Assembly (NCBI GenBank): GCA_003009755.1
Contig: PXUB01000029.1
Span: 3,164-67,163, forward strand
Direction: 5' to 3'
From: Thermoplasmatales archaeon SW_10_69_26
GTDB lineage: Archaea > Thermoplasmatota > SW-10-69-26
DNA length: 64,000 nucleotides
Shown here: positions 3,199-53,285 of the stretch, in pieces
Numbering within the stretch: position 1 is the stretch's first letter
Layout of the letters: each line of letters starts with the position of its first letter
Position numbers and translations under genes: made by a program
Notes under the pieces: generated by a model
Databases searched by the model: none
What the model was told of the DNA's origin: nothing
What the model saw: the letters and a program-made list of their open reading frames with translations, nothing else

Positions 3199-3604
3199 GG
3201 GCACCGATCGAGCCACGGACCGGGGGGCCGAGGACCCACGAGCTGGGGTTCACACCGTCACCCGTTCATCGACAGGGTCCTTCGACGACCTCCCGTTGAC
3301 GACGGGACCCGAGGGAGGCCCCGTCAGGAGGTACCGACAAGCGAAAACTTGCGACGGTTGTGGCGTCCGGCTTCGGGGCGCTTCTCGGTTCCAACGTCGC
3401 AGACCCTGCTCACTTCGCCCACCATCCGAGAGGTGCGACCGAGGTGGACGGACCGAGCTCGGGCTCCCCCTCCGGGGGGTCCGACGGTGGCTACCGAGCG
3501 TCGGAGGCCGAGCGACGGACGTGCACGTCGACTTGATGCCGCACCCCGGTCGATGAGCCTCGTGTTCCTCAGACGTGAGTGGTGGCTGCCACGTCCGAGG
3601 CTAC

Positions 3605-3698
3605 GCACGGCCTCCGCGACGTCTGCGGTCGGCCGTGCTTTCGCCAGAGACCGCGTTCCATGGCCTCGAGGTCCCCGATCGAGAGCGGTCTCTGGCGA
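3605..3698 (+). repeat. 94 bp two-hairpin repeat, family D, copy 1
   Basis: 8 bp stem/18 nt loop, 2 nt spacer, then a 14 bp stem TCGCCAGAGACCGC/GCGGTCTCTGGCGA with a 30 nt loop. Same layout at 11881-11974. Confidence 0.85.
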
Positions 3699-3893
3699 TC
3701 CTCTCTTCGGGGGTCGCTCGGCTCATCGCCGGATCAGGCCGGATCGGAGATCCGGCCGCTTCCGAGACCGCGGGTCTGCCGGTCTCGGGCCGCACACGAG
3801 CGCTCGCTCGTGCTCTCGCGACGTCCGCACTCGCTCGCGCCCGTGGCGCTTCTCAGCCCCTCAGCTGGGCTGTGGACGAGAGGGGCTGAGAAG

Positions 3894-3966
3894 TGGGACC
3901 GCCCGAATTTGAATCGGGGTTAACCCGCCCCCAGCGGGCAAGGATACCAAGCTACCCCACGGTCCC
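3894..3966 (-). tRNA. tRNA-Pro (GGG)
   Basis: GGGACCG acceptor, anticodon arm GCCCG-CTGGGGG-CGGGT, T-arm CCCGA-TTCAAAT-TCGGG, discriminator A; CCA not encoded. Confidence 0.95.
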
Positions 3967-4001
3967 AGTGGAATGCGGGGAATCCCGCCAAACAGGGAAC
4001 C

Positions 4002-4010
4002 CGCTATAAC
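4002..4010 (-). promoter_or_regulatory. Putative TATA box of tRNA-Pro
   Basis: GGTTATAGC on the minus strand about 40 nt upstream of the mature 5' end, in a GC-rich background. Confidence 0.5.
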
Positions 4011-4164
4011 CGTTTCGGGAGCCCCCTCGACCGGCTCGATCCCTCTCGGCCTCTCTCCCTTGGATCTCCGCCTTCGAGAAGGCGTCTGCGCTCCGTCAGC
4101 CGGGGGTGGACAAGTGCCATCTCCGATGGGCTTAAGAGGAGAGAGAACGACTCTCGGCCACCTC

Positions 4165-4620
4165 ATGGACGACGCGGACACCGGAGGCGACACCGCTGAC
4201 GGCTCCGATCTGCGCGAGCGGGTCCGTCGAGCCCTGGCCGCGGAAGGCTTCAGCTGGGAGCTGTGGCAGAAGCCCGAGCGCGGCCAGATCTTCGGGATGA
4301 TCCGCCGAGACGGCGAGATGCAACTGCACGTCCGCTACTACGAGGACGACGTCGTCAAGGCCGAGCGCGAGCTCGCCAACGATTACGTCGAGCACCTGCT
4401 CTCCCCGCGCGTCTCCGCGCACGAGGAGGTCGAGGAGATCCTCGAGGACCACGGGCTCGGCGACGAGGTCGACGTCGAGGAGAAGCGGTTCCCGCCCCGG
4501 CACGACGGCGTGGACATGCCCAGGACCCGCACACGCTGGAAACCGCTCGTGGTGGGCGTGGGTGTCGCGCTCGTCGGCGCGGTCGCCGGCACGGGTCTTC
4601 TCTTCTCCGGCGGCGAGTGA
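4165..4620 (+). CDS. Hypothetical protein with a C-terminal TM anchor
   Basis: ATG 4165 about 30 nt after CTTAAG; acidic globular part and a hydrophobic C-terminus. Confidence 0.8.
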   Translation: MDDADTGGDTADGSDLRERVRRALAAEGFSWELWQKPERGQIFGMIRRDGEMQLHVRYYEDDVVKAERELANDYVEHLLSPRVSAHEEVEEILEDHGLGDEVDVEEKRFPPRHDGVDMPRTRTRWKPLVVGVGVALVGAVAGTGLLFSGGE

Positions 4621-4702
4621 CCGCCGGCGAGCCCCGCTGAACGCTCGTCTCACAGGGAACCGAACAGCGGCGGGTCCACGCTGGGACCCGCCGCCGGACC
4701 CC

Positions 4703-7426: not shown

Positions 7427-7481
7427 CTGCTCGCCCGTTCACGAGCTCACATAAAGGCGTCCGGCTGTATCCGACGGTTCG

Positions 7482-9805: not shown

Positions 9806-10078
9806 CCCGCCGACCGCCACGGCTTCGGCCCCGAACCTGAGGAAAGAGCCAAATACGTCCCCTCGGCGAGCCGAAGCCAACCCGGCCCGACCACGACCGA
9901 GCCTGCGCGCCCGGTCCCGCCCCGCCCCCCTCGGGCCGGGTTCCTCTCGGGCACCGTGCCGTGGATCTTCGGACCACACCCCTCCCCGGATGGCACGGTG
10001 CCCTTCACCCCTCCTCTCGACGGAAACGAACAGACCTTCACGACACCGTTGAAGAAGGCCCCGAACCTTCTCCATCCC

Positions 10079-11667: not shown

Positions 11668-11880
11668 GGGATCGGCGACCGAAGGCGCGGGCGGCCTAAA
11701 CGGTTGAGGGTGGGACCGTCGGTCCCGCGGTCACTGCGATGGGAACATCGAGCCCGGTCGACGGGTATCCAGCTATCGACGCCGGTGATCGCGCATGCAC
11801 GGCCGCATCGCGTTCCCGTCTCACTGCGATGCGAGCATCGAGGCTAGCGGTATCCCCAAGCCTAGCGATGCTCGCAATTC

Positions 11881-11974
11881 GGACGGGCTCGGCGGTTTCT
11901 GTGGTCGCCCGTCCTCTCGCCAGAGACCGCGTTCCCCGTCCCCGAGATCCCCGATGGCGGGCGGTCTCTGGCGA
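11881..11974 (+). repeat. 94 bp two-hairpin repeat, family D, copy 2
   Basis: Same arm and loop lengths as 3605-3698; identical 14 bp arms. Confidence 0.85.
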
Positions 11975-12044
11975 TTCGTACGAACGCCTCGCCTGACGGC
12001 TCGCCGTTCGTACTCTCGGCGTGAAGTACCTCGAACGCTGCGGT

Positions 12045-12347
12045 CTACCCTTCTCGGTACTTCACGCCGAACCCACCACGAGGATGGTTCCAGTCGACGC
12101 TGCCGGGGGTGCACACGATGTCGCAGGTGCCGCACTCCACGCAGTCCTCGTACTGGAACGTCATCTTGCCGTCGACGAGCGTGAAGCAGTTCACCGGGCA
12201 CGAGTACATGCACATCCGGTGGGTGCACGTCTCGCAGATCTCGGGATCGATCGAGATGTGGGCGTGCTCCTCGTCGTCGAAGTTGTAGCTGGTCGCCCCC
12301 AGGCGTGCCTTGATGTCGAACTTCTCGTCGGTTAGTTGCTGGCTCAT
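12045..12347 (-). CDS. fixX: FixX-type ferredoxin
   Basis: CETC...CMYSCPVNCF and YEDCVECGTC...HPRGGFGV.YR.G; overlaps the fixC stop. Confidence 0.9.
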   Translation of the reverse strand: MSQQLTDEKFDIKARLGATSYNFDDEEHAHISIDPEICETCTHRMCMYSCPVNCFTLVDGKMTFQYEDCVECGTCDIVCTPGSVDWNHPRGGFGVKYREG

Positions 12348-13651: not shown

Positions 13652-13689
13652 CGTGTGCCTCTACGTGGCTCGGTCATTTCAGTACTGCG

Positions 13690-15572: not shown

Positions 15573-15736
15573 CTGTCTGGTTAAGCAGGGGCCGCGGAGG
15601 ACACGAGGGATCGCCAAGGCCACGAAGGGCCTGTGCACTCGCCGCCGGGCGGCGTTGTCACGGCAGCTGCTCCCCGTTGTGCCCTGGCGTCCCTTCGCGT
15701 ACTTGGTGGTCCCCCCCCCGTTTCTTATCCTTACAG
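15573..15736 (+). mobile_element. MITE-like element, family B, copy 1
   Basis: About 93% identical (my alignment: 9 substitutions, 3 indel nt) to the reverse complement of 50355-50515; imperfect terminal IR CTGTCTGGTTAAG/CTGTAAGGATAAG (10/13); no ORF. Confidence 0.75.
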
Positions 15737-15798
15737 CGCGGCTCCCCCGGGACCCACACTTGAAGTACGAGGCTGACCCATCCCAGGACGGGCCCGAG

Positions 15799-17489: not shown

Positions 17490-17529
17490 GCGGACCACAC
17501 AGAGCCACGGAAACACAGAGGCACAGAGG
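17490..17529 (+). repeat. CACAGAG periodic repeat, family C, copy 1
   Basis: GCGGACCACACAGAGCCACGGAAACACAGAGGCACAGAGG; 38/40 identical to the reverse complement of 18949-18988. Confidence 0.85.
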
Positions 17530-17940: not shown

Positions 17941-18588
17941 ATGATCAGACGGTTGGCTCTCGTCGCCATGCTCGTTTCGGTAGCGATGGGGGGATGCCTC
18001 ACCGAACCCGGCAACGTCCGCTGGTCCAACCGGATCGTCGATGGGGAGGGGGTATTCTCCCCGGGGGAAACGATGCGGTTCGAGGTGACGAACGACGTAT
18101 CTGGTCCGGGACAGTTCTCGTGGGATTTCGGTGACGGTAACGTTGCCACAGGGAGGACTGTCGAGCATACTTGGTCGAGCCCTGGAAGCTATCTGGTCAC
18201 CGTCGAATCTTGGATGGGCTCGTCCATGGCGAGGATCGGGGTCGCCAATGAGACCGAGATCAGTGGGTTCGCTCCACTATCTGGCGGCCATGCGTCCGGG
18301 ACGGTGAACAATTCATCGTCCCGCACGCTCGAACTGGATGAGCGGAACGAACGAACAGCAGCGAAGCTCGAATTCGATCGAGGTGGACCGACGAACCGCT
18401 ACGAAGGCCGTCTGGTCGCTCCGAACGGTTCGGTCGTCAAGGCGGCCTGCTGTCCTACTTCCGAGTTAACCGTGACTGTCGAACGACCTCTGCCGCCGGG
18501 CGAGTATGTGCTGGAGGTTGGGACCAGAGAGGGGGCCCCAAGTGATTACGCCGGACAGATCGAGATCCTTTACGAAAACCCGCCATGA
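17941..18588 (+). CDS. PKD-domain lipoprotein
   Basis: Lipobox MGGC; FSWDFGDGNVATGRTVEHTW..PGSY.VTV PKD motif; AT-richer codons than neighbours. Confidence 0.88.
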   Translation: MIRRLALVAMLVSVAMGGCLTEPGNVRWSNRIVDGEGVFSPGETMRFEVTNDVSGPGQFSWDFGDGNVATGRTVEHTWSSPGSYLVTVESWMGSSMARIGVANETEISGFAPLSGGHASGTVNNSSSRTLELDERNERTAAKLEFDRGGPTNRYEGRLVAPNGSVVKAACCPTSELTVTVERPLPPGEYVLEVGTREGAPSDYAGQIEILYENPP

Positions 18589-18948
18589 TTTCTTGAATCC
18601 ACGGCCGGCCGGATCAGGGGCTGGAGAAGATAAGAAAGGAAAGGAGGGGGAGGGCCGGCCCCCTCCCCGCGAAGCGTTGCTGCCGGAACGCTATGCGCAC
18701 ATACCGTTCACATCGTGGGCGCAGGGGTATTCTCCCGTGTTCCCGATCTCGTCGAACTCAAGGCCGCTATACTTATCGCCATCGCGCGAAAGGACAGTGT
18801 CGAGGTGGTAGGAGCGGTGATCGGCGTACCAGCCCCAGTCGACGTACCAGACGTCCCCGTCGGGTTTCGGGTCGCTCTCGACCTGAGGACATGCCGGCCG
18901 CCTACGCCTGCACTGAATCATGGATCTCTACGCCTCCCCAGCTCTGTG

Positions 18949-18988
18949 CCTCTGTGCCTCTGTGTCTCTGTGGCTCTGTGTGGTCCGC
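18949..18988 (-). repeat. CACAGAG periodic repeat, family C, copy 2
   Basis: Inverted copy of 17490-17529, with one extra unit upstream (18941-18948). Confidence 0.85.
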
Positions 18989-19016
18989 ACCCACACCGAG
19001 CCGCTCTGAGCCTTCT

Positions 19017-28241: not shown

Positions 28242-28446
28242 CGGTCGCGGTCGGCTCCCGTCGCCGGTTGTTTCACTGACCCCCCGCAGCGACGTTGATA
28301 CCTGTCGCCCACCTCTCCGGAGTTGCCTCGCTTGGAGGGATGGAGGCACCATGGGAGGTGCCCTTCGAGCACGGCGCGTCTCGACCGGGAACGGTTCGAG
28401 CCTGTGGGCCCCGGAGGCCACGCCCCCGGGGCCCCACTTCTCCCCC

Positions 28447-28667
28447 TGAAGATCCTCTTTTCGACGGGGCCTAGCCGCCTCTCGACCGGGGAAAAGGAAA
28501 ATCGCTGTTAAGGAAAACCCCGGTCGGCAGCGTCCGGAGGCGCCGGTGCCGACCGTCTGGCGCCTCCGGAGAAGACGGATCTTCGATCCGTCCGAAACGC
28601 AGGCCCCAGCGCCGCTGACCTTGGGCGCTGTTGGATCCTCGCGCAGGGCTATGTCCGCCTGACGGGC
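28447..28667 (+). repeat. Multi-hairpin dispersed element, family A, copy 1
   Basis: About 90% identical to the reverse complement of 43812-44129 outside a 95 bp insert; diverged copy at 52944-53102. Confidence 0.88.
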
Positions 28668-28913
28668 AACGACACCATCGCTCGTCGTGGGTCCCCGACG
28701 ACCGCCGCCGTGCCTCCGCGACGAAGGACGAGAACCCACAGGCGCAGGGCAACGCTGACGCCGGAGCCCTCAGGCGTGCTGTCTGCCCCGCCGGCTTCGG
28801 CGCGCCGCCGGCGAGGACCTCCAACATCTCCTACCGCCGTCACGTCGTCGCGGATCAGGGGTGTGAACCCGTTCGCGTCGATGGCCGCACCAGCCGTGGT
28901 ACCGTCCGGTCCG

Positions 28914-30071
28914 TCAACCTCTGTCGACCACGAGCAGGTGGATCGTCAACCGGCCGTGCTTGACGGTCTCGTCCTCGGCGACCGTCAACCCGCGCTCGTC
29001 GGCGATGCGGTGGACGAGGTCGGCTTTCGGCGTTAACAGGCCGATCCTGCCGTCGTCGGCGAGGCTGGCGAGGCCGGCATCGATGAGGTCCCGGTAGGTG
29101 TCCGCGAGCGGGGCCTCGCCCGAGCGGATGCCGTAGGGTGGGTTGGTGGCGACGAGCTCGGCGTCGTCGACGTGGTCGGGAAGTTGGCGGGCGTCGCCGG
29201 CGTAGGTGTCCACGAGGTCCGCGACGCCGGCGGCCTCGAGGTTGCGTTGGGCGCCCTCGACGTGGTTGGGGGCGTGGTCGCCGAGCACGAAGGCGGGCGC
29301 TTGCTCGCGGTCGACGAAGGCCTCCGGCGCGCCCAGGTTGGCCTGGTGCTCGGCGAGCGCGGGGGCGTGCCAGGCGAGCAGCTCGTCGCCGCGCAACCGC
29401 ATCGGGGACAGGCCCAGCGCCCGGCCGACGGCCTCGGTGACGAGCGTGCCGCCGCCGGCCATCGGGTCGGCGAACGGGCCCCTCGCGCGGTGGTCGGCCA
29501 GCTCGAGCAACGCGGCGGCCAGGGAGGCTTTCATGCCGGCGGGGTGGTCGTAGTCGCGGTAGCTGCGTCGGTGCAGGCCGGCTTGGCCGGCCAGGTCAAG
29601 CCACAGGCGGGTGTGGCCGGCGTCGTCCACGTGCACGCGGACGATCGCGTCGGGGGCCTCGAGGTCGACGGGAGGTCGGGTGCCGAGCTCGGTCGCGAGG
29701 TGGTCGTGCAGGCGGTCGCCGACGCGGGCGGCCAGCTCCATGCTGGTGAACTCGTGGTCGCCGGTGCGGTGGCCGCGCACGGCGAAGGGGCCCTCGGCGA
29801 ACCACGGGTCGACGTCGATCTCGTCCACGAGCGCGTCGAGCCCGTCCCAGGGGTCGTCGGGATCGAGCGAGCCGGCGGCCAGGACGAGACCGAGCCGGTG
29901 CAAGGTGCGCAGGCGGCCGATCGCGTCGGCGAGGTCGAGGGGTCCGTCGACGGTGAAGGTGGTCCAGCCGGCGTTGTCGAGCGCGTCGTCGACGGGGGTG
30001 AAGCCGTTGCGCTCGAGCTCGCGGTGGACGACGGGCCGGAGGCCGGGCGCGATCGTGGCGCAGGCGCGCAC
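28914..30071 (-). CDS. THUMP-domain RNA methyltransferase (Trm14/RlmL-like)
   Basis: ATIAPGL...REL, THUMP (FAVRGHR.GDHEFTS), DPMAGGGT, NPPYG; GTG 30071. Confidence 0.88.
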   Translation of the reverse strand: MRACATIAPGLRPVVHRELERNGFTPVDDALDNAGWTTFTVDGPLDLADAIGRLRTLHRLGLVLAAGSLDPDDPWDGLDALVDEIDVDPWFAEGPFAVRGHRTGDHEFTSMELAARVGDRLHDHLATELGTRPPVDLEAPDAIVRVHVDDAGHTRLWLDLAGQAGLHRRSYRDYDHPAGMKASLAAALLELADHRARGPFADPMAGGGTLVTEAVGRALGLSPMRLRGDELLAWHAPALAEHQANLGAPEAFVDREQAPAFVLGDHAPNHVEGAQRNLEAAGVADLVDTYAGDARQLPDHVDDAELVATNPPYGIRSGEAPLADTYRDLIDAGLASLADDGRIGLLTPKADLVHRIADERGLTVAEDETVKHGRLTIHLLVVDRG

Positions 30072-30419
30072 AGCGCGGGCAACGGGGGCCCCGGCAAGAA
30101 GGCCTCGGTTGCGGGGCCCACGATCGTCCGCCTGCACCGCCAAGCGTGCCTGAACCGCCTTGTGCGGGTCCTCGGGGGAGGCGGCTCGGGAGGGCCGAGG
30201 TGACGGCGATCCCGGTCTTCGGTCACCCGACCCTCGTCGGGCTCGCCGCGTTCGCCGGCGTGGGCGTCGTGGCCCTCGTCGGTCGGCAGCGCTGAGGGGA
30301 CCGACCCTCCGCGTAGCCGCGGGCTCGGCCCACGGCCTCCCACCGTCTGCCGTCCTCTCGCGACCTCGTCGCCGGCCAGGACCCGGTGGCTCTTAGGAGG
30401 CGAGGGGATTGGGCCCACG

Positions 30420-32721: not shown

Positions 32722-32895
32722 TGTAGCTCTCAAATAGTTCAAAGAACCGTATGAACTTTCCGTACGACCTCTTGTCGGACGGGATACCCGCCGGGGAGGA
32801 CTGTCCCCGGCGGACCCGTCTCCACGCCTCTGTAGCCCGAACTCCCGGAAGTTGCCCGACGTGGAAGCCATCCACCAGTGAGCCTCGGCCGCCGG

Positions 32896-37880: not shown

Positions 37881-38395
37881 GCGTGGTCGTATCGGCCGGG
37901 CCAAGAAAAGACTGCCGGCCTCGCGCCGCTCGTCGTGGTATCCGGTCGAGATCTCCTCGCACGCTCCACCCCCTCCTCCACCCACCGCGCAAACGATGCA
38001 ACAAGGGACGGCTGGGCAAGCCGACCGAACGCCTCAGCCGGCGTCTGGAACGCCTCCCGGGCGAATCCAGGACGAGCCGTTCCTGGCTCATTCTCCGAGA
38101 ACAACTACAACAGAGCCGGCGACCACCCGGGAAGCCAATTGCCGGGGGACCTCCATTGACTCCGGTCACCTCGCAACGCCAGGACCCGCCAGCCGTTCAC
38201 CGAGGAGCTCAGAGGCCCACGCGCGATCCACCGGACGATGCTTCTCAATCGCTATCCAGGGGACATGACCTATCCGATGCGGGTCCGCCAGAGAGATCGT
38301 TTCGGGAGCGACCTAACGAGTCCCTGGTCTTTATTCGGCTGAGTCCGGTGGCTGGAATGTGAGGGGTCGTACCCATTCGCTATATCGTTCTCATC

Positions 38396-39391
38396 TTGGT
38401 CACGATTGCATTCATTCCGGGGCTCGCCTCGGCGGCCAATCACAGCGACGAGCTCGGGACCTTCGAAAGGGAGGGGGATCGGTTCGTCGGAGAGGAGACT
38501 GCGTTCGCTCTCGACGAGGACCTTCCCGGGATACGGAACCTGACGGACCAGACCACGGGCGAGGTCGTCTTCGACGAGGTTCGTCTGGCGGAGCCGGGGG
38601 CGATGGACTGGACGATCGGCTTCGATACTTTCACGCTCTCGGCTCAAGACCGCCCGGGCCTGCTCATGGTCCAGGACGACGCCCCGCCCACCTTCCGCGC
38701 CTGGTTCCCGGGAGACCAGCAGGGAGTCTGGAACCTTTCCCTCGCGCCCGGGATCTCGGTCCAGCCAGTGGACGAGAGCAACCAGAAGACGCTGATGTCC
38801 ACCCACGACACATCCTACGAGCTGGACTTGACTAGCAGCAGGATCACCTACCTCGTCGGACAGGGGATCGAGTACGACCCCCCAAAGCGGGTCTTCACCG
38901 TTCGCGACCTCTCGCTCGTATACCAGGCAGACCGCGTCACCGTCGAGGGCGACGACGAGGGCTGTCGGGAGGGGCCGGTATGCATGCGGTTCCAGGGGTT
39001 CCCAAAGAACCCGGCGCCCGGGGATTCGGTTCAGCTCCGCTTCGAGAACGAGGGAACCGACACGCATGGCCTCTGGGTGGCCGCCAGCGAACCCCTCGAC
39101 GGGACGAACGCGTCCCCAGAGGAGGCGATCGCAAGCATCGAGGAGGTACCTCCCGGCCAGACAGCATCCGTCAACTTCACCGTTCCCGACGGCGCCGAGA
39201 GACTGTACCTGTGGGACGACCGAGACGACCACGAACAGCGGGGGGAATCTCTGCGGTGGGAGCTCGAGAGCGCCTCGCCCGGCGGAAACTCCGGAGAGGT
39301 GGAGGATCGGACGAGTACCCCTTCGGCGGGCTGGCTTGCGTTCGCTGTCTCCTCGATCTCGGCCGCGATCCTCCGGACCCGATGGACGTAG
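38396..39391 (+). CDS. Secreted/cell-surface protein with a cupredoxin-like domain and a C-terminal sorting-type TM
   Basis: VQLRFENEG...H...PPGQTASVNFTVP motif; C-terminal TP..G + hydrophobic + basic tail. Start uncertain: TTG 38396, while the signal peptide seems to extend upstream without an in-frame ATG/GTG. Confidence 0.75.
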   Translation: MVTIAFIPGLASAANHSDELGTFEREGDRFVGEETAFALDEDLPGIRNLTDQTTGEVVFDEVRLAEPGAMDWTIGFDTFTLSAQDRPGLLMVQDDAPPTFRAWFPGDQQGVWNLSLAPGISVQPVDESNQKTLMSTHDTSYELDLTSSRITYLVGQGIEYDPPKRVFTVRDLSLVYQADRVTVEGDDEGCREGPVCMRFQGFPKNPAPGDSVQLRFENEGTDTHGLWVAASEPLDGTNASPEEAIASIEEVPPGQTASVNFTVPDGAERLYLWDDRDDHEQRGESLRWELESASPGGNSGEVEDRTSTPSAGWLAFAVSSISAAILRTRWT

Positions 39392-39881
39392 GTCTGGTCC
39401 CGACAGGATCCCCCAGCATAACCGCCATACCCAGTGGCCTCGATTCCAGATGCAGGGGACTTGGGTGGTGAGAGCGAGCCGGGTCCGACGCGTGGCGCAA
39501 GGAGTGGGAGATCCACGCAGGTGCCTACAATCGTTACATCAACTGGTCCCTCCAAGCGGTCGGAGGTTCCCCCTCGGGCGCCACCCTCATCGGAGTCTAT
39601 CTATTCCTCCGGGGCGGCGCCACCACAGCGTCACGGACACCGGTGGCCCCGTTCGTGGCTGGCCCTGCTGGCGTCGGGGTTTACTTCTATAGCCACGATA
39701 TCGGTTACGAGGCTGGTGTGAATCTCGCCGAATGCGGGGTTATCATCAATATCCCTGCTGATTTCGTCGAAATCGGGGGCTAGGCTGGCGAGACTCCGCT
39801 GAAGTAGCCGGGCAGGCGGCTGGGTGGCTCCTGCCATCTTCCCCAGTTTTCATCTTTTTTCCATTCTCGTTACTCGTGTGA

Positions 39882-40415
39882 ATGGTTCGGCCTGAATTGA
39901 TCCTCGCTGTCGCAACCATCCTGGCCTCAGCCGGATGCATCGGCACCCCGGGCCAGGATACGCCAGCGGAAGCCGAACCCGCGGACGTCAACCAGGATCG
40001 AACCACGAACGCGAGTCGGCCCTCGAACACGACGATCGCCAAGCAGACGACGATCCTCGTCGGCTTCGAGGCGACCACCTGCGCCGACCAGGTTCCGCGG
40101 TGTGGCGGCGCGTTCTGGTCTTCCCAGACGCGCCCCTTCACCGTGTTCGGCATAACCGGCGAGAACGCGACCGTGAACGTCACCGCGAACTGGACCCCGA
40201 GCACACCGCTCTCGGAGACGCTGCGCCTCACCGTCACGAACGCCGAAAACGAGATTCTGGTCGACGAGGCGGGACCCAGCCCGCTCGCCGCGACGTTCCA
40301 GGCCTCGGCCGGCGAGTGTACGGCCTCCGTCGGAACCGATCCCCAACCCCTGGCCAGCGCGACCGTGGACCAGGAGATCGCCTACGCGATCCGCGGCCCC
40401 GTCGACGAACGCTGA
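39882..40415 (+). CDS. Hypothetical lipoprotein
   Basis: Signal peptide with SAGC lipobox; beta-rich body. Confidence 0.8.
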   Translation: MVRPELILAVATILASAGCIGTPGQDTPAEAEPADVNQDRTTNASRPSNTTIAKQTTILVGFEATTCADQVPRCGGAFWSSQTRPFTVFGITGENATVNVTANWTPSTPLSETLRLTVTNAENEILVDEAGPSPLAATFQASAGECTASVGTDPQPLASATVDQEIAYAIRGPVDER

Positions 40416-40549
40416 CCACCACGCACCCCGGTCGCTAGCCCTCCCCCGTGAGGGGTCGAGCAGGCCTCCGCGCCGGCTCCGGCGAGCCCGTCCCCGACTT
40501 GCGCATAGAGGCAAGCGCCTGCTCGGGAAAGCCGACGGGGCCTTCCCCT

Positions 40550-40800
40550 AACTATACGAATACGAGGCTCGTCGCCGCCCCCGTGGACGCGCCCCTGGCC
40601 GCCGAGCGCACGATCGTCGACGACCGGCAAAAGCTCGCCATCTGGGCCAACGGTGAGCGCCACGTCGTCGAACCGCCGATCCTGCCCTACTGCTGCGCGA
40701 AGACGCCGTTCGACGAGGGCCCGGTGCGGGAACGCCAGCTGACGCGCAAGGCCCTGTCCACGCCCGAACCCGCCGAGTGGACGAAGGCCATGACCCGATC
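40550..40800 (+). pseudogene. Coding-like remnant, possibly the N-terminus of a family-B polymerase-like protein
   Basis: KLAIWANGERHVVEPPILPYCCAK in genome-like codon usage; no credible start or end. Confidence 0.3.
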
Positions 40801-40920
40801 ATCTAGTCGCGGCACTACGTCCTCCGAGTCTGTGGAACGGCGCTCGCCGAAGCGCATATTGGCGGACAGCATAGCTCTTAGCCATGGGCGAGGCTCACGG
40901 GCTCGCGACGGCTCTGGAGG

Positions 40921-41430
40921 TCAGTGGTCGGCGCGGATCCGAGCGCCCACCTCGATCAGGCGCGGGGCGGGCTCGGTCTCCAACAACTCGGCCAGCCGGT
41001 CCCACGTCCACGCCAGCGTGCGTTCCTCGACGCTGGGATCGTCGACGACGAGTTCGTCGTCGTCCTGGCGGAGGACGAGCAGGAACGGCGGTCCATCGCC
41101 CGGGCCCGACACGATGACGGGGCGGCGAGCCGCGAGCGCGGTCTCGACGGTGACCGTGTCGGCGGCCTCGTGGACCTGGAGCCCGGCCGAGCGCGCCTCG
41201 TCCGGGACCTCGTCGGGCTCGGGCGTGTGCAGATGGACGTGGTAGCCCAGCCCCAGGGCACGGTGAGCCAGCGCGGCGGCCGTCCGCGTGGCCTCGATCC
41301 GCTCGACGAGCTGGGCGGCCTCCCGCCCGTCGAGCGCGGCGGCCGCCATCGCGAGCGTCGCCGGGCCGGTCTCCTCCTCGGCTGCCCCGATCGGCGACGG
41401 CACCGTCAGGTTCGCGAGCGCGGGCTGCAC
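40921..41430 (-). CDS. Peptidase C39-like fold protein, probably inactive
   Basis: ETGPATLAM, RPVIV, FLLVL...VVDDP; catalytic Cys and His replaced. Confidence 0.65.
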   Translation of the reverse strand: MQPALANLTVPSPIGAAEEETGPATLAMAAAALDGREAAQLVERIEATRTAAALAHRALGLGYHVHLHTPEPDEVPDEARSAGLQVHEAADTVTVETALAARRPVIVSGPGDGPPFLLVLRQDDDELVVDDPSVEERTLAWTWDRLAELLETEPAPRLIEVGARIRADH

Positions 41431-41556
41431 GGACCGGGGAACCCGCGGGAGCGGCTTGAGGCTTTCCCACGGCCAGCGCAGACCGGATGCGCCGGCCGGT
41501 TGTAACTCGATGCGAACCGTCGATGGTCTTTTCATCGACTCGGTGGATACGGAGCC

Positions 41557-41967
41557 GTGTCGAGGAACCGTTCGGGAGGCTCGGCCGGAGGAGCTCGTCG
41601 ATCGATCGTCCCTCTCGTGCTGGCGATCGGTCTCGTCGCGATGACGATGGCGCCCGTCGCGGCCGCCGACCACCAGGACATCGTGATCAGCATCTCCGTC
41701 CCGGGGGGAATAGTATGCGTCGGGACGATCGAGGACGATCAGACGGTCGGTCAGGCGGACCGCCCCGGCCCGAACGCGACCGTGACGGTCCAGGGCGAAC
41801 CCGTGGTCGCCTCCGAGGGCCCCGAGGGAAGCACGGTCTGGGTGAGCACGCCTTCGTTCGGCCTCGCCGTCGACGGGTCGGTCACCGCGGAGGCGACGAC
41901 CCCGAGTGAGACGGTGTCGTCGACCACGGTCGTCGACCCCGTCTCCGTCGGTGTCTGCATCCGATAG
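41557..41967 (+). CDS. Small secreted protein
   Basis: RR + hydrophobic + AAA signal peptide; two Cys. Confidence 0.7.
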   Translation: MSRNRSGGSAGGARRSIVPLVLAIGLVAMTMAPVAAADHQDIVISISVPGGIVCVGTIEDDQTVGQADRPGPNATVTVQGEPVVASEGPEGSTVWVSTPSFGLAVDGSVTAEATTPSETVSSTTVVDPVSVGVCIR

Positions 41968-43778: not shown

Positions 43779-43811
43779 GGCGCGGGACCCACGCGGGTCC
43801 GCTCGCGTCGA

Positions 43812-44129
43812 AGCTCGTCAGGCGGACATAGCCCTGCGCGAGGATCCAACAGCGTCTAAGGTCAGCAACGCTGGGGTCTGCGTTTCGGACGGATCGAAGA
43901 TCCGTTCTCTCCCGAGGCGCCAGACGGTCGGCACCGGCGCCTCCGGACGCTGGCGACCCCAGTTTTCTTCCGGAGATCGGCGACACCGTTCGGTCTCCGG
44001 AGAGGCCGAAGCTCCGCTTCGGCCGGATTGCGAGGGTTCCTGCCGCCAGGCGAACCCTCCATCTTAACAGCGAAGATTTCTTTTCCCCGGTCGAGAGGCG
44101 GCTGGGCCCCGTCGAAAAGAAGATCTTCT
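43812..44129 (-). repeat. Multi-hairpin dispersed element, family A, copy 2 (with a ~95 bp hairpin insert)
   Basis: Reverse complement matches 28447-28667; begins at the ybaK stop codon. Confidence 0.88.
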
Positions 44130-44604
44130 ATTCGACGAAGTCGCCCTTCGAGACGTCGGGCAGCTTGCGGAGGTCGGCGGCCTTGATCTCGAGCATGACG
44201 TCCTCGCTGCCGCCGCCGACGTACACCATGTCCTGGTCGAGCACGCGCTGGTCGATGAGCGTGCGGAGCGGGCGTTCGTGCCCGATGGGCGGTACGGCGC
44301 CGACGGGGTAGCCGGTGAAGGACTGGATCTCGTCGGGTTCGGCCAGGCGCACGTTCTCCTCGGCGTCGACGCTGACGTGGTCGGCGACCTTCTCGAGCGA
44401 GACGACGTCGGGGCCGCGCACCAGCACGACCACGGGCTCCTCGTCGGCGACCATGAGCACGATGCTCTTCCCGATCTGGTCGGCCTCCACATCGAGGGCG
44501 TCGGCTGCGGCTTGCACCGTGCTGGCATCCTGGAGCTGCGCGTGGAGGTCCGCCTGGATGCGGAGCTCCTCCGCTGTCCGTTCGACGTCCGAGGAGTCTC
44601 GCAT
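44128..44604 (-). CDS. ybaK: YbaK/EbsC aminoacyl-tRNA deacylase family protein
   Basis: TV..AA.AL.V...QIGKSIV, TGYPVGAVPP.GH, YVGGG. Confidence 0.9.
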   Translation of the reverse strand: MRDSSDVERTAEELRIQADLHAQLQDASTVQAAADALDVEADQIGKSIVLMVADEEPVVVLVRGPDVVSLEKVADHVSVDAEENVRLAEPDEIQSFTGYPVGAVPPIGHERPLRTLIDQRVLDQDMVYVGGGSEDVMLEIKAADLRKLPDVSKGDFVE

Positions 44605-44677
44605 CGCAGCAGCCGTACTCGTCGATGCGAGAAGAGGTCTTCGGTTGCCGCCCTCGCAGGCGGCTGGCGCTGGGCCC

Positions 44678-48245: not shown

Positions 48246-48306
48246 CGGCGACGGTGACTGGGGCCGTCGTTAAGTAGGAGGGGTTGGCAAGCCTTGCTCG
48301 TGGCTT

Positions 48307-48594
48307 ATGTCCTCACCTGTTTCCTCCCTCAGCTCCAAGCCCGTGCGCGATGCCCGTGACCGTCCCTTCGGCCGCGTCGCCGGGTCCCAGGTCCAGCCCG
48401 ACACGCGCGGGCCCTCCTGGCTCCTCGTCGAGCTCGCTCCGGAGGCCGCCGGGGAGCTGAACGGCGAGGGCCGGTTCTGCTGGCTCCCCTATGCGGCGGT
48501 GGGCGGCATCCGCCGGGATGCGGTCAGGTTGGCCGAAAGCGCCGGCCTGGTGCTCGAGGAGGTCGACGGACCGGTCTCGCGGCCGCAGCCCTAA
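48307..48594 (+). CDS. PRC-barrel-like protein
   Basis: K.VRD..D..FGRV......LLV...LPYAAV..I..DAVRL; TTAAG upstream. Confidence 0.55.
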
Positions 48595-49796: not shown

Positions 49797-49847
49797 CGCC
49801 GCGACAGGGGTGGACGGTCAAAAGCCTGCCGGCAGCGGCGAACCGGA

Positions 49848-50231
49848 CTAGGCGGGGGCGTGGCGCTCCTCCTCGAGCTCCTCGAACAGCGCCTCGACCT
49901 CGCGCTGGCGGATCGGCTTCTCCAGCACGTCGAAGGCGCCCAGGGCGACGAGCTGCCGCACGCGGCCATCCTGGGGGTCCAGCGCGGTCATCGGGACCAG
50001 ACGCAGGTCGGGAGCCTCCTCCATGAGCACGGCGCCGATCTCCTCGCCGGGGATGTCGGGCAACACGAGGTCCAACAGCACCAGGTCGGGCGATCGAAGA
50101 TCGCAGAACGTCAACGCGTCGCGAGCCGCGTCGACCTCGTGGATGTGGTCGGCGGGCACACCGATCTCCTCCAGGATGGCTCGGACCGTGTTCCGGACGC
50201 TCTCGGCGTCGTCGACGACGAGCACGTCCAT
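49848..50231 (-). CDS. Stand-alone response regulator receiver
   Basis: VLVVDD, PDLVLLD..LPD, MTA, KPI. Confidence 0.92.
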   Translation of the reverse strand: MDVLVVDDAESVRNTVRAILEEIGVPADHIHEVDAARDALTFCDLRSPDLVLLDLVLPDIPGEEIGAVLMEEAPDLRLVPMTALDPQDGRVRQLVALGAFDVLEKPIRQREVEALFEELEEERHAPA

Positions 50232-50354
50232 CGCGACCGGTCGATCCCAACCCTGGCTCGGCATAAGCGAAGGTTGTCAGGTCCCCCTACATGCGGGCCT
50301 GTGTGCCCGAACATGTTCGGGACCAGCGCGGCCGAGCGGGCCTGCAGACGGGGG

Positions 50355-50515
50355 CTGTAAGGATAAGAAATGGGGGGGACCACCATGTACGCGAAGGGAC
50401 GCCAGGGCACAAAGGCGAGCAGCTGCCGTGACAAAGCCGCCCGGCGGCGAGTACACAGGCCCTTCGTGGCCTTGGCGATCCTTCGTGTCCTTCGCGGCCC
50501 TGCTTAACGAGACAG
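50355..50515 (-). mobile_element. MITE-like element, family B, copy 2
   Basis: Reverse complement of 15573-15736; lies at the 5' end of the FKBP-like gene. Confidence 0.75.
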
Positions 50516-51729
50516 TCCTCGCCATCTCCCTGGTCACGGTCGGATGCGCCGGCCCGGCCGGGGAGCAGGTCGAGGACGCCGAGGCGATGACGCTATCGCC
50601 CGGCACCGACGCCGGCATGCCGCTCGTCCTGAACGAGACCAACAACACCGAGGACGTCACCGTCTCGACGAGCGAGGCGGGCGTCGAGGCCTCCCTGTCC
50701 GAGCCCGGCGAGGACGCTCCCGAGGGCTTTGCCGGCTGGCTCACCGTGTCCGCCAGCAAGGATGCCGAGGACGGGCAGCGGATCATCGAGGTCAGCGTCG
50801 ACGACGAGGAGCGCGAGCTCCCCGTCACCGTCGACGAGGCCGACGAGCCGGTCGAGATGGGCCAGACCGCCAACCTCACCTTCTCGGCTCGCACGCTCGA
50901 GGGCGAGCTCGTGCTGACGAACGACGCCAACGCGACCTCGGCCCCGATCCCGCAGGCGGCCTCCTTCCAGGAGCCCCGCAGCTTCGGTCCGACGTCGGTG
51001 CAGATCTCCCAGCGCAGCCAGCTTCCCACCGAGCTCGTGCAGGCGATCAACGGCTCCGAGGTCGGGCACAGCCTCACCGTCGAGGTGCCCGAGGTCTTCG
51101 GTCCCGAGAAGGTCGAGGATCAGACCGCCCGCGAGGAGACGATCGAGCGCGAGACGGAGATCCCCAACCAGCTCGACCTCCCCCGCCGCCAGGCCCAACA
51201 GCTGATCCCCCAGGACGCTCAGGAGGGCGACGAGGTCGACGTGCCCGTCACCCGGGACGGCCAAGGCGTCCCCTACGTGATCGAGAGTCTCGGTGAGCGC
51301 CAGGTGAGCCTCGCCATGGCCCTCGACGAGGGCGCCAACGTGACCCTCTACGAGGCCTGGCCCGACCAGGCTCAGGTGACCAACACCACCGGCGAGAACG
51401 CCACGATCCAGCTCTCGCCCGACGTTAAGGAAGGCCACACGCTCACCTGGAACGAGAACTGGGGCAACGTGACCGAGGTCACCTCCTACACGAACGAGAC
51501 GATCGTCCTCCGCCACACCCCGGAGATCGGCACCACCTACGAGACGACCGACCGCCGCTCGCAGCAGGCGATCGAGACGGAGGTCGTCGACCTGACCGAG
51601 GATCAGGTCATCCTCGAGCAGACGAACCCGCACCCGCTCGCCGGGCAGACGATCGTCTTCGACGTCACGATCGAGAGCGCCCAGGACGCGCCTCAACAGC
51701 CCCGCCCCCCGCAACGACCGCAGCGCTGA
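50485..51729 (+). CDS. FKBP/SlyD-like PPIase-domain lipoprotein (5' end interrupted by element B)
   Basis: VTVGC lipobox, HPLAGQTIVFDVTIE FKBP C-terminal motif, long insert-in-flap. The only in-frame start near the lipobox is a GTG inside the MITE. Confidence 0.75.
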   Translation: MSFAALLNETVLAISLVTVGCAGPAGEQVEDAEAMTLSPGTDAGMPLVLNETNNTEDVTVSTSEAGVEASLSEPGEDAPEGFAGWLTVSASKDAEDGQRIIEVSVDDEERELPVTVDEADEPVEMGQTANLTFSARTLEGELVLTNDANATSAPIPQAASFQEPRSFGPTSVQISQRSQLPTELVQAINGSEVGHSLTVEVPEVFGPEKVEDQTAREETIERETEIPNQLDLPRRQAQQLIPQDAQEGDEVDVPVTRDGQGVPYVIESLGERQVSLAMALDEGANVTLYEAWPDQAQVTNTTGENATIQLSPDVKEGHTLTWNENWGNVTEVTSYTNETIVLRHTPEIGTTYETTDRRSQQAIETEVVDLTEDQVILEQTNPHPLAGQTIVFDVTIESAQDAPQQPRPPQRPQR

Positions 51730-51964
51730 TGCCTCACCCGGGTGAGGCCGGCCGCTCGCGGGTGGCCCCAGCGGCCGCCTGCAGGCTCGGCCACGCGCTC
51801 GACGGGATCGAACCCGTGCTCGGCCGCCACCGGCCGGCGGGGGTCGAGGTCGCCTTGACGTCGTAGAGGACCCGCCGGCCCTCGGGCGTCTGGAGGGACT
51901 CGACGGCGACCACGTCGGTCCCGGCCGCCTCCACGATCCGCCGGCCAGTCTCGACGGCTTCCTC

Positions 51965-52276
51965 GGGCTGGGCGTCCTTGTCGCAGTGGGACCCTGGTCT
52001 GGGCAACGGGGCTGGCCTGGACAGCCGGTGGCGTCCCGAGACGCGGGGAAGATCGTTCGCGTCTCGGCAAAGGACGACCGCCGAGCGGTCGTCCGGACAG
52101 GCCTCCGCAGGTTCGATCACGAGAGCCGAAGGGGGGTGGCCCGGCTCTCGTGAGAGCCCGAGGGCGGCGAGGTCGCTCGCCTTCGGGCGGATCGCCAGGG
52201 CGCGGCGGCCACGGTTCGGGCCTTGGCGAGAGCAGGTCCGGCCGGAGGGAGGACGTGCGGAATCCTGCCCCCTGCA
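51965..52276 (+). pseudogene. tRNA-Leu pseudogene split into three pieces by two hairpin inserts
   Basis: 51965-52033 (leader + nt 1-51), 52098-52116 and 52260-52276 match consecutive parts of 52300-52402. Confidence 0.9.
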
Positions 52277-52317
52277 TCGCAGGGTTCTTCCAACGCGCTG
52301 GGCTGGGCGTGCTTGTC

Positions 52318-52402
52318 GCAGGGGTACCCTAGTCTGGGCAACGGGGCTGGCCTTAAGAGCCGGTGGCGCAGGCCTCCGCAGGTTCGAATCCTGCCCCCTG
52401 CA
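52318..52402 (+). tRNA. tRNA-Leu (TAA)
   Basis: GCAGGGG/CCCCTGC-A acceptor, CTGGC-CTTAAGA-GCCGG anticodon arm, long variable arm, GCAGG-TTCGAAT-CCTGC T-arm; CCA not encoded. Confidence 0.95.
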
Positions 52403-52520
52403 CTGACGGACTCGAGCCAAGGATGGCGGGGCAGGATGAGAACCCTGGTTCGATCCGGAGATTCGGCGGAGAAGGGGATGAATCTGCGGAGCGGCCGAAC
52501 GAGCACCGCGAGTTCGGCCA

Positions 52521-52550
52521 GAATCCTGCCCCCTGCACTGACGAACTCGA
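52521..52550 (+). repeat. Direct repeat of the tRNA-Leu 3' end plus trailer (att-like)
   Basis: GAATCCTGCCCCCTGCACTGACGAACTCGA, 29/30 identical to 52386-52415. Confidence 0.9.
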
Positions 52551-52683
52551 CGAGGGCCCGCACCCCCTTCCGAGGCCGTTTCGACGAGAGCATCGCCTCC
52601 CGAGGCGGTCTTCTCGGCTGAGACGAGCTGTGGGACAGGACCGAGAAGCGAAGGCTTATGAACGGAGCGCGCGTGGCCCTCGC

Positions 52684-52878
52684 ATGGCCACCGGCAAGGT
52701 CGCGTTCTTCCACGATCGGAAGGGCTACGGTTTCATCGAGACGAGCAGTGCCGACGACGACGTTTTCTTCCACGCGGAGGACTTCGACGGCCCCGACCCC
52801 GAAGAAGGACAAGAGGTCGAGTTCGAGATCGAGCAAGCGGACCGCGGTCCCCGGGCAGTGAACCTCGAGTTCGCGTAG
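52684..52878 (+). CDS. csp: Cold-shock domain protein
   Basis: MATGKV.FF...KGYGFI...DVFFH....GPRAVNL. Confidence 0.95.
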   Translation: MATGKVAFFHDRKGYGFIETSSADDDVFFHAEDFDGPDPEEGQEVEFEIEQADRGPRAVNLEFA

Positions 52879-52943
52879 CGGCTCCTTCCGTCCGTCTCGG
52901 CCTTCCCGCCGGCCCCTCCCGGGTGCCCGGTGCGGCTCCCATC

Positions 52944-53102
52944 GAACATTTTTCGTTCCGAGGGCCTTGGCGTCTCTCGACAGGGTGAAAAAGACGGATC
53001 TTCGGCAACGAGGAAACCTCCTCGGGAGCGACCCAGCCGCCAGCGTCGCTGGTCTCGGGCGCGGTTGGATCCTCGCGCAAGGCTCCCTCGGCTTGACGGG
53101 CA
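52944..53102 (+). repeat. Multi-hairpin dispersed element, family A, copy 3 (diverged, internally deleted)
   Basis: Shares CTCTCGAC.GGG.GAAAA, GACGGATCTTCG, CCAGCG.CGCTG, GTTGGATCCTCGCGCA and TGACGGGCA with 28447-28667. Confidence 0.75.
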
Positions 53103-53285
53103 GTGGTGTAAGTCCTGGCGTGGGGGGTCCGACGCCGGGAAACGAGATCCTCGGCGAGGAGGGGAACGGGGGTCCGGCGTCCGTCGGCCGGCGCCTTGGA
53201 CTTCGTGGAGGACCATCCCCCCGGGCGACCGTCCGCGGCTTCGAGACCCCTCAGGCTTTCATAGCTCGGTTGCGGTGGCTCGCTC

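Follow-up and report, generated by a model that had tools for sequence, protein, structure and literature searches.

Hairpin chains in the gene spacers of an uncultured halite archaeon resemble the small palindromic repeats of bacteria and haloarchaea

Introduction

The REP, BIME and REPIN sequences of bacteria are mobilised by RAYT, a Y1 HUH transposase that has been described from bacteria, and bear a GTAG or CGTC tag. REP, REPIN and PATE families usually run to tens to hundreds of similar copies. Small non-coding mosaic repeats, intergenic and palindromic, are also a feature of Deinococcus radiodurans, a desiccation-tolerant host. In Haloquadratum walsbyi, PATE and SMR are transposase-free palindromic elements that cause no target duplication, and the PATEs derive from IS200/IS605-type transposons (PMC3119063). 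Hairpins are also found at the ends of transcripts: in Haloferax volcanii they precede 503 mapped 3' ends and, in vivo, 59% of transcripts were terminated by one of them (PMC7237163), and clusters of hairpins in bacteria have been proposed to be terminators (PMC8355165).

Here we analyse hairpin chains in a 64,000-nt stretch of archaeal DNA (contig PXUB01000029.1; hereafter the window). The source organism is an uncultured archaeon from halite (salt rock) that belongs to a Thermoplasmatota-affiliated halophile lineage. A preliminary description had put these chains forward as the best candidate in the window for an undescribed system. This is too strong, since REP/BIME repeats are already known from bacteria and PATE/SMR from haloarchaea, and the window hairpins resemble such small palindromic repeats more than a new kind of system. 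Like REP, BIME and REPIN sequences, they are small, G+C-rich extragenic hairpins that form mosaics in 3' and convergent spacers, without target duplication and with conserved stems and variable loops; the likeness would extend to the dependence of REP, BIME and REPIN on an enzyme encoded elsewhere. Unlike REP/BIME, they are tagless and mostly unique, their families are tiny, their host is an archaeon and the window holds no RAYT. They resemble PATE and SMR, which lack a transposase and target duplications, have palindromes near the ends and units down to 52-110 bp, nest into conglomerates and cause most of the variation from strain to strain, and they resemble PATEs in lacking terminal inverted repeats. 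On the side of differences, PATEs have a sequence tie to IS605-type ends and to a short target or terminal oligonucleotide, SMRs have terminal inverted repeats, which the families described here do not, the window has no IS200/IS605 gene, and the best named relatives of the host place it outside the Halobacteria. Like hairpin terminators and terminator clusters, the window hairpins lie downstream of genes, and single ones stand at stop codons and before T-runs in positions conserved among relatives. Unlike terminator clusters, the chains comprise up to 8 hairpins over 300-700 nt, mostly without T-runs, and are missing in a relative and variable among strains.

Results

We counted perfect stems with loops of 3-40 nt and compared the counts with those in dinucleotide shuffles. 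The non-coding DNA of the window (13.3 kb by codon-bias gene calls) contains 47, 24, 14 and 7 stems of at least 8, 9, 10 and 12 bp, respectively, compared with 14.7, 4.4, 1.4 and 0.1 in the shuffles, an excess of about tenfold for stems of at least 10 bp and about seventyfold for those of at least 12 bp. The excess, which bears out the stem chains of the preliminary description, is restricted to non-coding DNA at the scale of the window: coding DNA has 4 stems of at least 10 bp against 6.5 expected. Seven of the eight long gaps fold better than their shuffles, with minimum free energy (MFE) z-scores of -3.1 to -4.6, and nine coding controls gave -1.8 to +0.9. In local folds, hairpins follow one another head-to-tail with spacers of 0-7 nt at 3.6-3.9, 9.8-10.0, 11.7-12.07, 28.25-28.7, 43.8-44.13 and 51.98-52.55 kb, mainly downstream of genes, and their loops are often large (mean 20 nt, maximum 40). 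Since Logan contigs of metagenome run X1 reproduce the window at 3190-3990 and 51821-52690 with zero differences, the chains are real and not an assembly artefact. The claim that most long gaps are such chains was overstated, as dense chains occupy only about 7 of the roughly 18 window gaps longer than 300 nt. The 52.9-53.3 kb gap is not borne out as a chain, having a single perfect stem of at least 8 bp and a z-score of +1.4, and what had been described as a chain at 51.7-52.6 kb holds for 51.98-52.55 kb, the segment at 51.73-51.98 kb being probably a small coding ORF rather than spacer. Searches against Rfam 15 at gathering and permissive thresholds matched only tRNA-Leu, leaving the gaps empty even at E<=5.

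The chain at 3605-3893, which has a deoxyhypusine synthase gene on one side and the tRNA-Pro 3' end on the other, consists of about 8 back-to-back hairpins, with perfect stems at 3605-3638 (8 bp), 3641-3698 (14 bp), 3737-3757 (9 bp), 3762-3788 (9 bp) and 3849-3893 (14 bp), and has single-copy depth in X1. Three consecutive hairpins at 9821-10003 have perfect stems of 9, 12 and 12 bp and loops of 31-40 nt. A further chain of 6-7 hairpins lies between dsrE-like and fixX-like genes (11804-12070), in a gap (at 11.7 kb) that also contains local direct repeats; its final hairpin (12016-12070, 15-bp stem) has its 3' arm within the coding end of fixX. This is one of five stems of at least 9 bp with one arm in a CDS or tRNA, the others involving the 3' end of tRNA-Leu (10 bp), a start codon and two further sites. 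Because one of their arms is the end of a CDS or tRNA, these hairpins were not inserted as ready-made cassettes and were either formed in place or are functional.

A lone hairpin with an 11-bp stem, in a short gap between convergent genes (4667-4694), is an example of ordinary gene-end hairpins, and others lie at 32788-32813, 44597-44632 (over a start codon) and 56623-56656 (over a stop codon). Downstream of the csp gene, a hairpin followed by TTTTT keeps its position in two relatives (L046 and L047), and in several relatives the AF_0059 stop codon lies inside a lineage-specific hairpin. Such gene-end hairpins, present in relatives too, look like ordinary terminators, and the presence of different hairpins at the same stop codon in relatives points to function over parasitism for this class.

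Most hairpins are perfect in stem and unique in sequence: the window has one copy of each, as does the X1 metagenome at k=31. A minority fall into small dispersed families (FamA, FamB, FamC, U1-U2 and H1-H3), so that some hairpins do cluster, as the preliminary description required. The two copies of FamB, both on the plus strand (3622-3699 and 11898-11975), are 85% identical over 78 nt. Copy 1 is a TCGCCAGAGACCGC/GCGGTCTCTGGCGA hairpin with a 30-nt loop and a 19-nt leader; the 14-bp stems of the two copies are identical and their loops have diverged. A third FamB-like member occurs in tandem in an X1 contig, and a scan of viral contigs for FamB was empty. The preliminary description had listed arm motifs recurring across unrelated loci, and for 3641 and 11917 this reflects true homology, as these are the FamB hairpins. 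GAGACCG/CGGTCTC, by contrast, is not enriched in non-coding DNA (5 of 23 and 7 of 30 occurrences, against a non-coding share of 21% of the window); with spacers no richer in it than coding DNA, it was rejected as a family marker and attributed to composition. Occurrences of TCGCCA(G) are too few to judge enrichment. Hairpin arms have 12 7-mers in common compared with 3.0 in a control that was not composition-matched.

FamA has three copies. Copy 1, the short form (28448-28673, plus strand), is a hairpin mosaic that includes two interleaved inverted repeats, a GACGGATC/GATCCGTC hairpin and a GTTGGATCCTCGCGCA core. Copy 2, the long form (43816-44128, minus strand), starts at the tRNA_edit stop codon and is 91-94% identical to copy 1. 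Copy 3 is partial (52958-53104, plus strand; core 53040-53102) and lies within the csp-adh spacer, which measures 407 nt in the window; two relatives have a spacer free of FamA there, of 163 nt in L047 and 155 nt in L046. Copies 1 and 2 are mutually inverted and coincide with the breakpoints of a 15-kb inversion relative to L051; they also differ by one compensatory pair in a CAGCGCC/GGCGCTG stem (n=1). A three-hairpin cassette of about 95-105 nt in copy 2 (43958-44063; U1 43969-44001, U2 44004-44024, U3 44032-44059) is missing from copy 1. In the X1 metagenome, where depth serves as copy number and several genomes may be pooled, FamA stands at 5-10x and its individual modules at 2-10x the depth of the genome, with 60-83x for copy 1 and 47-90x for the cassette against 11x. 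Such depths suggest that long copies prevail, in which case copy 1 may have lost the cassette by deletion instead of copy 2 having gained it by insertion, and the earlier reading of the cassette as extra DNA in copy 2 is qualified accordingly. The 3' arm of U1 together with U2 recurs at a second locus in X1, X2, X3 and X5, where the stem TCCGGAGACCG/CGGTCTCCGGA is kept and the loop is different; this match (35 nt, 4 differences) excludes chance. Searches with the FamA core GTTGGATCYTCGCGCARGG in GTDB genomes, JGI metagenomes and viral contigs returned chance matches only, or none. An upstream region in L049 was considered as FamA-like and rejected, the resemblance being by eye only and a blast search against the window giving no match.

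FamC is a 200-nt structured module (28251-28447, plus strand) immediately 3' of the Ldh stop codon. In the sister species L052 it stands immediately after the GINS stop codon, with about 76-83% identity, and likewise in X4; L055 is collinear with the window and its sequence ends within GINS. PLSDB plasmids gave no blastn match to the gap at 28.2-28.9 kb.

Turning to the tRNA-Leu locus, the intact tRNA-Leu(UAA) gene (52318-52403, plus strand) provides an uninterrupted reference and is the only tRNA-Leu gene detected there by ARAGORN and Rfam. Its 3' end pairs with an inverted copy at 52428-52437. Upstream lies a degenerate copy (51983-52276, plus strand) with U8G, A14G and an altered anticodon loop, which is split by two insertions missing from the intact gene: ins1 (52034-52097, 64 nt, 2 hairpins) and, in the T-loop, ins2 (52117-52259, 143 nt, H1-H3 plus one more hairpin). 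Here the preliminary description, which had recognised extra cassettes in the tRNA copy, was correct, and both insertions are also present in the X2-X4 strains. An archaeal tRNA intron was rejected, as the interrupted copy has U8G, A14G, an acceptor-stem mismatch and the anticodon loop CTGGACA; no bulge-helix-bulge was seen at its junctions by inspection. A third, partial copy (52416-52550, plus strand) is a 3' fragment whose T-loop is interrupted at the same position. Its variable cassette (52456-52490) is followed by hairpin H4 (52493-52519), and its last 30 nt repeat the 3' end of the tRNA together with flank.

For this locus only, the duplicated tRNA pieces and the DNA that separates them could be scars of elements with an integrase that entered the tRNA 3' end time and again and then decayed, rather than hairpins inserted into a tRNA copy; we judge this rather unlikely, though far from remote. 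The 30-nt direct repeat (52386-52415 and 52521-52550) comprises the tRNA 3' end and 13 nt of flank and begins in the T-loop, as an att core would; in a relative, the one tRNA-Leu is encoded on the opposite strand and has other upstream neighbours, and the tRNA fragment unit in X2 has another left flank. Against such scars, merely 105-173 nt separate the repeats, there is no integrase nearby, and the upstream copy has the 5' half plus 18 nt of upstream flank, which is not a product of att duplication.

Comparison of close strains for polymorphic insertions revealed differences by whole hairpin units. In L042, a strain 97.8% identical to the window, the cassette in the tRNA-Leu fragment is swapped: the window has a 35-nt hairpin versus a 112-nt H1-H3 cassette in L042 (94% identical to window 52110-52230), and the next 190 nt are near-identical, with one mismatch. 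Other haplotypes at this site are [H1][H4] in X1 and a different hairpin in X2. The X3/X4 strains have an insertion at about 3503-3505 and a 44-nt indel at 3546-3555, the latter bounded by a 10-bp direct repeat. At a larger distance, 37 kb of syntenic DNA in the relative GCA_964581775.1 includes 2.9 kb of non-coding DNA with one stem of at least 9 bp, and its gap z-scores (-3.1 to +1.5) are mostly within 2 SD of zero. Since the chains are missing from this syntenic DNA, their expansion is lineage-specific.

As to signatures of mobility, about 50 window ORFs were scanned with Pfam and none matched a transposase, RT or HUH protein, in agreement with the preliminary description. The REP tag reading was rejected because GTAG and CGTC are at control level on 43 hairpins (0 versus 0.8, and 5 versus 5.0 +/- 2.1, respectively), and neither a tag nor a terminal motif nor a target site is conserved among the hairpins. 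The boundaries of FamA, FamB and FamC have neither terminal inverted repeats (TIRs) nor target-site duplications (TSDs), so a MITE identity was likewise rejected; the ends of FamA, GAAGATY...TGACGGGCA, are not inverted repeats, and the left flanks of three FamA copies (CCCCCT, CGAATA and AGGGCT) have no tetranucleotide in common. No target duplication was found at the junctions of FamA copies 1 and 2, a third copy, ins1, ins2 or the FamA cassette. The absence of TIRs and target duplications, in units too short for a transposase, is a trait of PATEs. In the three cases with a reference (ins1, ins2 and the FamA cassette), both hairpin arms lie within the extra DNA. Integron attC sites were rejected, as neither window strand contains RYYYAAC-N30-130-GTTRRRY and no integrase was found. 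Stem termini carry TC on 9 of 43 hairpins compared with a 7% background, which is suggestive and not diagnostic.

Discussion

We put at about even the prospect that the long 3' spacers have been expanded by mixed small non-coding palindromic modules, non-autonomous repeats of a REP/BIME- or PATE/SMR-like kind overlying ordinary terminator hairpins. The modules would be single hairpins of 30-60 nt together with 200-330-nt mosaics built from them (FamA, FamB and FamC). Entire hairpin units would be gained, lost or swapped at the stem base without target duplication, and would reappear at unrelated loci with the stem retained and the loop altered. They would accumulate where insertion is harmless, in convergent and 3' spacers and in decayed tRNA copies, superimposed on the single terminator hairpins at gene ends, and inverted copies might then become substrates for rearrangement, as in the FamA-flanked 15-kb inversion. 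We infer that DNA, as a folded single strand, would be the intermediate of spread, whether by copy-and-paste or by templated or strand-switch synthesis, and that an enzyme, if one takes part, would be encoded outside the window. Accretion, as the preliminary description had it, accords with the families, the whole-unit strain polymorphism and the lineage specificity; it accords less well with most hairpins being single-copy and with the five stems that have a CDS or tRNA arm. The lack of a tag or target site and of a transposase in the window also counts against the modular reading, as does the potential origin of the tRNA-Leu locus as integrase scars.

The hairpins may instead have originated in place, by mutation and without any dedicated element. 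DNA synthesis that switches strand or folds back (template switching) at replication or break repair would make inverted copies of adjacent sequence, some of which would be spread by gene conversion, local duplication and ectopic templated insertion, and the difference between lineages would lie in their DNA-repair equipment. We regard this as rather unlikely, if well worth weighing. It fits the perfection of the stems in hairpins of mostly unique sequence, the five strong stems that use pre-existing functional sequence as one arm, the relative that has no inverted copy beside its tRNA-Leu, the want of TSDs, TIRs, tags and transposase, the local direct repeats of the 11.7-kb gap and the 10-bp repeat bounding the 44-nt indel; arms of a palindrome that homogenise each other would also give the same stem with a different loop. 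It fits poorly with ins1, ins2 and the FamA cassette, in which both arms are new DNA with no copy in the flank, with the identical two-hairpin units at unrelated loci, and with loops that are often long, unlike those of simple snap-back products.

An unlikely explanation is that the hairpins are functional RNA, terminators or mRNA 3'-end protectors under selection, with chains as redundant terminator clusters in convergent spacers and families reflecting shared function. The position of chains mostly 3' of genes, the conserved csp hairpin with its T-run, the AF_0059 stop-codon hairpins and the precedents from Haloferax volcanii (PMC7237163) and bacterial terminator clusters (PMC8355165) speak for it, as does the preference of G-U pairs for the transcribed strand, seen in the tRNA/csp region (-186 vs -154 kcal/mol). 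The strand preference of folding energy differs from gap to gap, however, with no consistent direction, and most chain hairpins lack the T-run used in archaeal termination. Moreover, the same genes in the relative have short, barely structured spacers, hairpins occur within the dead tRNA copy too, and entire units differ between 98%-identical strains.

Similarly improbable, in our estimate, is a recombinase or polymerase encoded elsewhere that is structure-specific, not sequence-specific, and copies any G+C-rich single-strand hairpin into spacers at existing hairpin bases, with no target duplication or tag; such a system would account for the diverse yet perfect stems, the head-to-tail stacking and the confinement to a single lineage. 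Chance in DNA of 70% G+C, or an assembly artefact, is refuted for the strong stems and next to negligible overall: 8-bp stems are common by chance (14.7 expected in 13 kb) and short common arm motifs are effects of composition, but the tenfold and seventyfold excesses of longer stems arise outside genes only and the sequence is identical across independent assemblies.

If the modules are mobile, they would widen the range of REP/PATE-like palindromic repeats to include a little-known lineage of uncultured archaea, and as unusually diverse, tagless units they would bear on recognition by structure versus sequence. If template switching in repair gave rise to them, the locus would document that process as it happens in nature, in an organism exposed to desiccation; the repeats of Deinococcus radiodurans may resemble the window modules as intergenic, palindromic mosaics, which we take as a lead only. 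The repeats appear to shape the genome, given the FamA pair at the inversion breakpoints and the spacer content that differs between strains 98% identical, and the spacers could act as strain markers in halite communities. A candidate IS element at 17.5-19.0 kb was rejected, as its 40-nt inverted repeats at 17490 and 18949 consist of (CACAGAG)n arrays that flank a gene with a PKD domain.

Hairpin excess in non-coding DNA

Genes were called by codon bias and hairpins catalogued as perfect stems with loops of 3–40 nt, and the 13.3 kb of non-coding DNA scored was compared with dinucleotide shuffles. We observed 47 stems of at least 8 bp (14.7 in shuffles), 24 of at least 9 bp (4.4), 14 of at least 10 bp (1.4) and 7 of at least 12 bp (0.1), with no excess in coding DNA (4 stems of at least 10 bp; 6.5 expected). 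Seven of eight long gaps folded better than shuffles by 3.1–4.6 SD, and nine coding controls gave fold z-scores of −1.8 to +0.9. Local folds revealed true head-to-tail chains, with eight hairpins across 3605–3893 and seven across 11668–12070, and similar chains at 9.8–10.0, 28.25–28.7, 43.8–44.13 and 51.98–52.55 kb. The preliminary description, which had placed hairpin chains in most long gaps, was largely correct in this observation, although dense chains occupy only about 7 of the 18 gaps longer than 300 nt and, among the gaps it named, 52.9–53.3 kb was weaker (z = +1.4) and 51.73–51.98 kb is probably a small ORF. The recurring short arm motifs that it proposed did not hold up: GAGACCG/CGGTCTC is equally common in genes and spacers, and arm-to-arm 7-mer sharing exceeded only a control lacking composition matching.

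Variation between species and strains

In GCA_964581775.1, a relative with proteins about 70–75% identical, the 37 kb of syntenic DNA compared held only 2.9 kb of non-coding sequence and one stem of at least 9 bp, with z-scores for its gaps between −3.1 and +1.5, the majority no more than 2 SD from zero, and a single tRNA-Leu without pseudo-copies. The csp–adh spacer measures 155 nt there and 163 nt in a relative at 87%, and reaches 407 nt in the window; the extra length in the window consists of a partial copy of the dispersed hairpin-repeat family FamA (FamA3) and further hairpins. In a sister species the spacer preceding adh is long, with moderate structure. FamC, another such family, lies directly 3′ of the GINS stop in the sister species (84–89%) and after Ldh in the window.

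Comparison of closer strains revealed structural polymorphisms. Contig L042 (97.8% identical to the window) carries, downstream of tRNA-Leu, a 112-nt cassette of hairpins H1–H3 that is 94% identical to window 52110–52230 (T-loop of the upstream pseudo-tRNA); at that site the window has a 35-nt hairpin (52456–52490), beyond which the two differ by one mismatch in 190 nt. Other haplotypes there have H1 followed by H4 in metagenome run X1 and another hairpin in X2, while strains in X3 and X4 show an insertion at ~3503–3505 and a 44-nt indel at 3546–3555.

Relative to csp, the tRNA-Leu(UAA) gene (52318–52403) is on the other strand from its counterpart in a relative's contig (L046, 9413–9497), and its upstream neighbours also differ, so the locus is a rearrangement point; it may partly record integrase activity. 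The interrupted tRNA copy was considered as an intron-bearing gene and rejected; it is a pseudogene.

Repeat families

Self-comparison of the window gaps identified FamB (3622–3699 and 11898–11975; 85% identity, identical 14-bp stems, diverged loops), FamA (copy 1, 28448–28673 (+); copy 2, 43816–44128 (−); FamA3, near 53040–53102 (+)), three separate tRNA-Leu pieces and a 165-nt inverted duplication (15573–15737 and 50354–50515; 93%), with no further repeats, the rest being unique within the window. In assembled metagenome (Logan) contigs, hairpins of the 3.2–3.9 and 51.8–52.7 kb gaps were single-copy at k=31.

FamA modules had unequal depths in X1, 2–10 times the genome's 11x, and FamA is therefore mosaic, its parts differing in copy number. 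Its three-hairpin cassette, present in copy 2 and lacking in copy 1, had been taken as an addition, but its depth of 47–90x indicates that other FamA copies carry it, so copy 1 may be the deletion form. Four metagenomes have the 3′ arm of cassette hairpin U1, together with U2, at a further locus, where the U1 stem is TCCGGAGACCG/CGGTCTCCGGA and the loop differs; FamB in metagenome contigs likewise kept its stem and changed its loop.

FamA copies 1 and 2 contain, at 28521–28570 and 43914–43958 respectively, the perfect inverted repeats CGGTCGGCA/TGCCGACCG and TCCGGAGGCGCC/GGCGCCTCCGGA, interleaved in pseudoknot order with linkers of 2–3 nt; these cannot co-form and are thus mutually exclusive alternative hairpins. 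This module has the highest metagenome depth within FamA. At 44110–44137, the left end of copy 2 and the last codons and stop of tRNA_edit together make up a near-perfect palindrome of 28 nt with AGATCT at its centre.

Compared with gene order in GCA_964581775.1 (L051), the 30.4–43.8 kb block (AAA_18 to PriS–GINS) is inverted, and its breakpoints (28242–30419 and 43779–44127) hold FamA copies 1 (+) and 2 (−), as expected if inverted-repeat recombination caused the inversion. At 50515/50516, an ENA assembly of the X1 sample includes 84 nt absent from the window, with a promoter-like region and the start codon of a 414-aa gene. The break is the exact end of the 165-nt duplicate, whose other copy lies upstream of a cysteine desulfurase gene; the difference reflects a deletion variant or else an assembly join.

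Origin of the hairpin modules

Accretion of cassettes, as first proposed, is partly supported as a lineage-specific, ongoing build-up of hairpin modules, but only some of these are dispersed repeats and some hairpins were built in place. Haloarchaeal PATEs are palindromic elements without TIRs or TSDs; they are too small to encode a transposase, nest within one another and vary between strains (PMC3119063). The window modules share all six of these descriptive traits, on which the likeness rests, whereas the defining PATE trait is a link to IS200/IS605 ends. No TIRs or target duplications were found at FamA, FamB, FamC or cassette junctions, nor GTAG or CGTC tags on the hairpins, attC core sites, or Rfam matches for the hairpin gaps. 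As first described, no transposase, RT or HUH protein was found in the window (Pfam, ~50 ORFs), and a driver would act in trans. We consider it an even prospect that the modules are REP/BIME- or PATE/SMR-like, non-autonomous palindromic elements on top of normal terminator hairpins.

Some hairpins must have arisen in place rather than as inserted units: five stems of at least 9 bp have one arm in functional sequence. A 15-bp stem uses the end of the fixX coding region and a 10-bp stem the 3′ end of tRNA-Leu, and the others involve two start regions and the AF_0059 stop. That the hairpins were made in place by template switching and recombination would suit these stems but is, for the modules as a whole, unlikely. 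Single gene-end hairpins look like ordinary terminators of the kind documented in Haloferax (PMC7237163), since relatives carry different hairpins at the same place at the AF_0059 stop and csp has a conserved hairpin with a T-run; purely functional terminator arrays are a decidedly improbable account of the modules.

Host and gene content

The window (G+C ~69%) carries the core archaeal genes PriS, GINS, Pelota, NFACT, aIF2-alpha, CCA-adding enzyme, Ldh and deoxyhypusine synthase, with tRNA-Pro(GGG) and tRNA-Leu(UAA). Of its sampled 31-mers, 90% are present in the halite metagenome run X1, and the window sequence reappears in the ENA and Logan assemblies from this sample. Thermoplasmatota MAGs supply the best named relatives for both PriS (42–48%) and the Zn-dehydrogenase (65%), with no Halobacteria names among them, despite the halite source and acidic proteins of haloarchaeon type. 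Only ~10 close homologues occur in 5.8 billion proteins, and the lineage seems sparsely sampled. By these protein affinities, the host is a poorly sampled halophile with an acid proteome, outside the classical haloarchaea.

The tRNA-Pro(GGG) gene (3893–3966 (−)) was called by ARAGORN and looks canonical on visual inspection, yet the Rfam tRNA model gave no hit to it, even at E ≤ 5. Inverted heptamer arrays, CACAGAG/CTCTGTG (17490–17529 and 18942–18990), surround a 1.4-kb lower-G+C segment with a PKD-domain ORF (17941–18588) and no transposase found between them. A 3.7-kb stretch at 37881–41616, of lower G+C (about 0.64) and with ORFs lacking a Pfam match, stands in place of the relative's PALP and DUF3335 genes and may be a small island; its right part is common to a 98% strain (L055).
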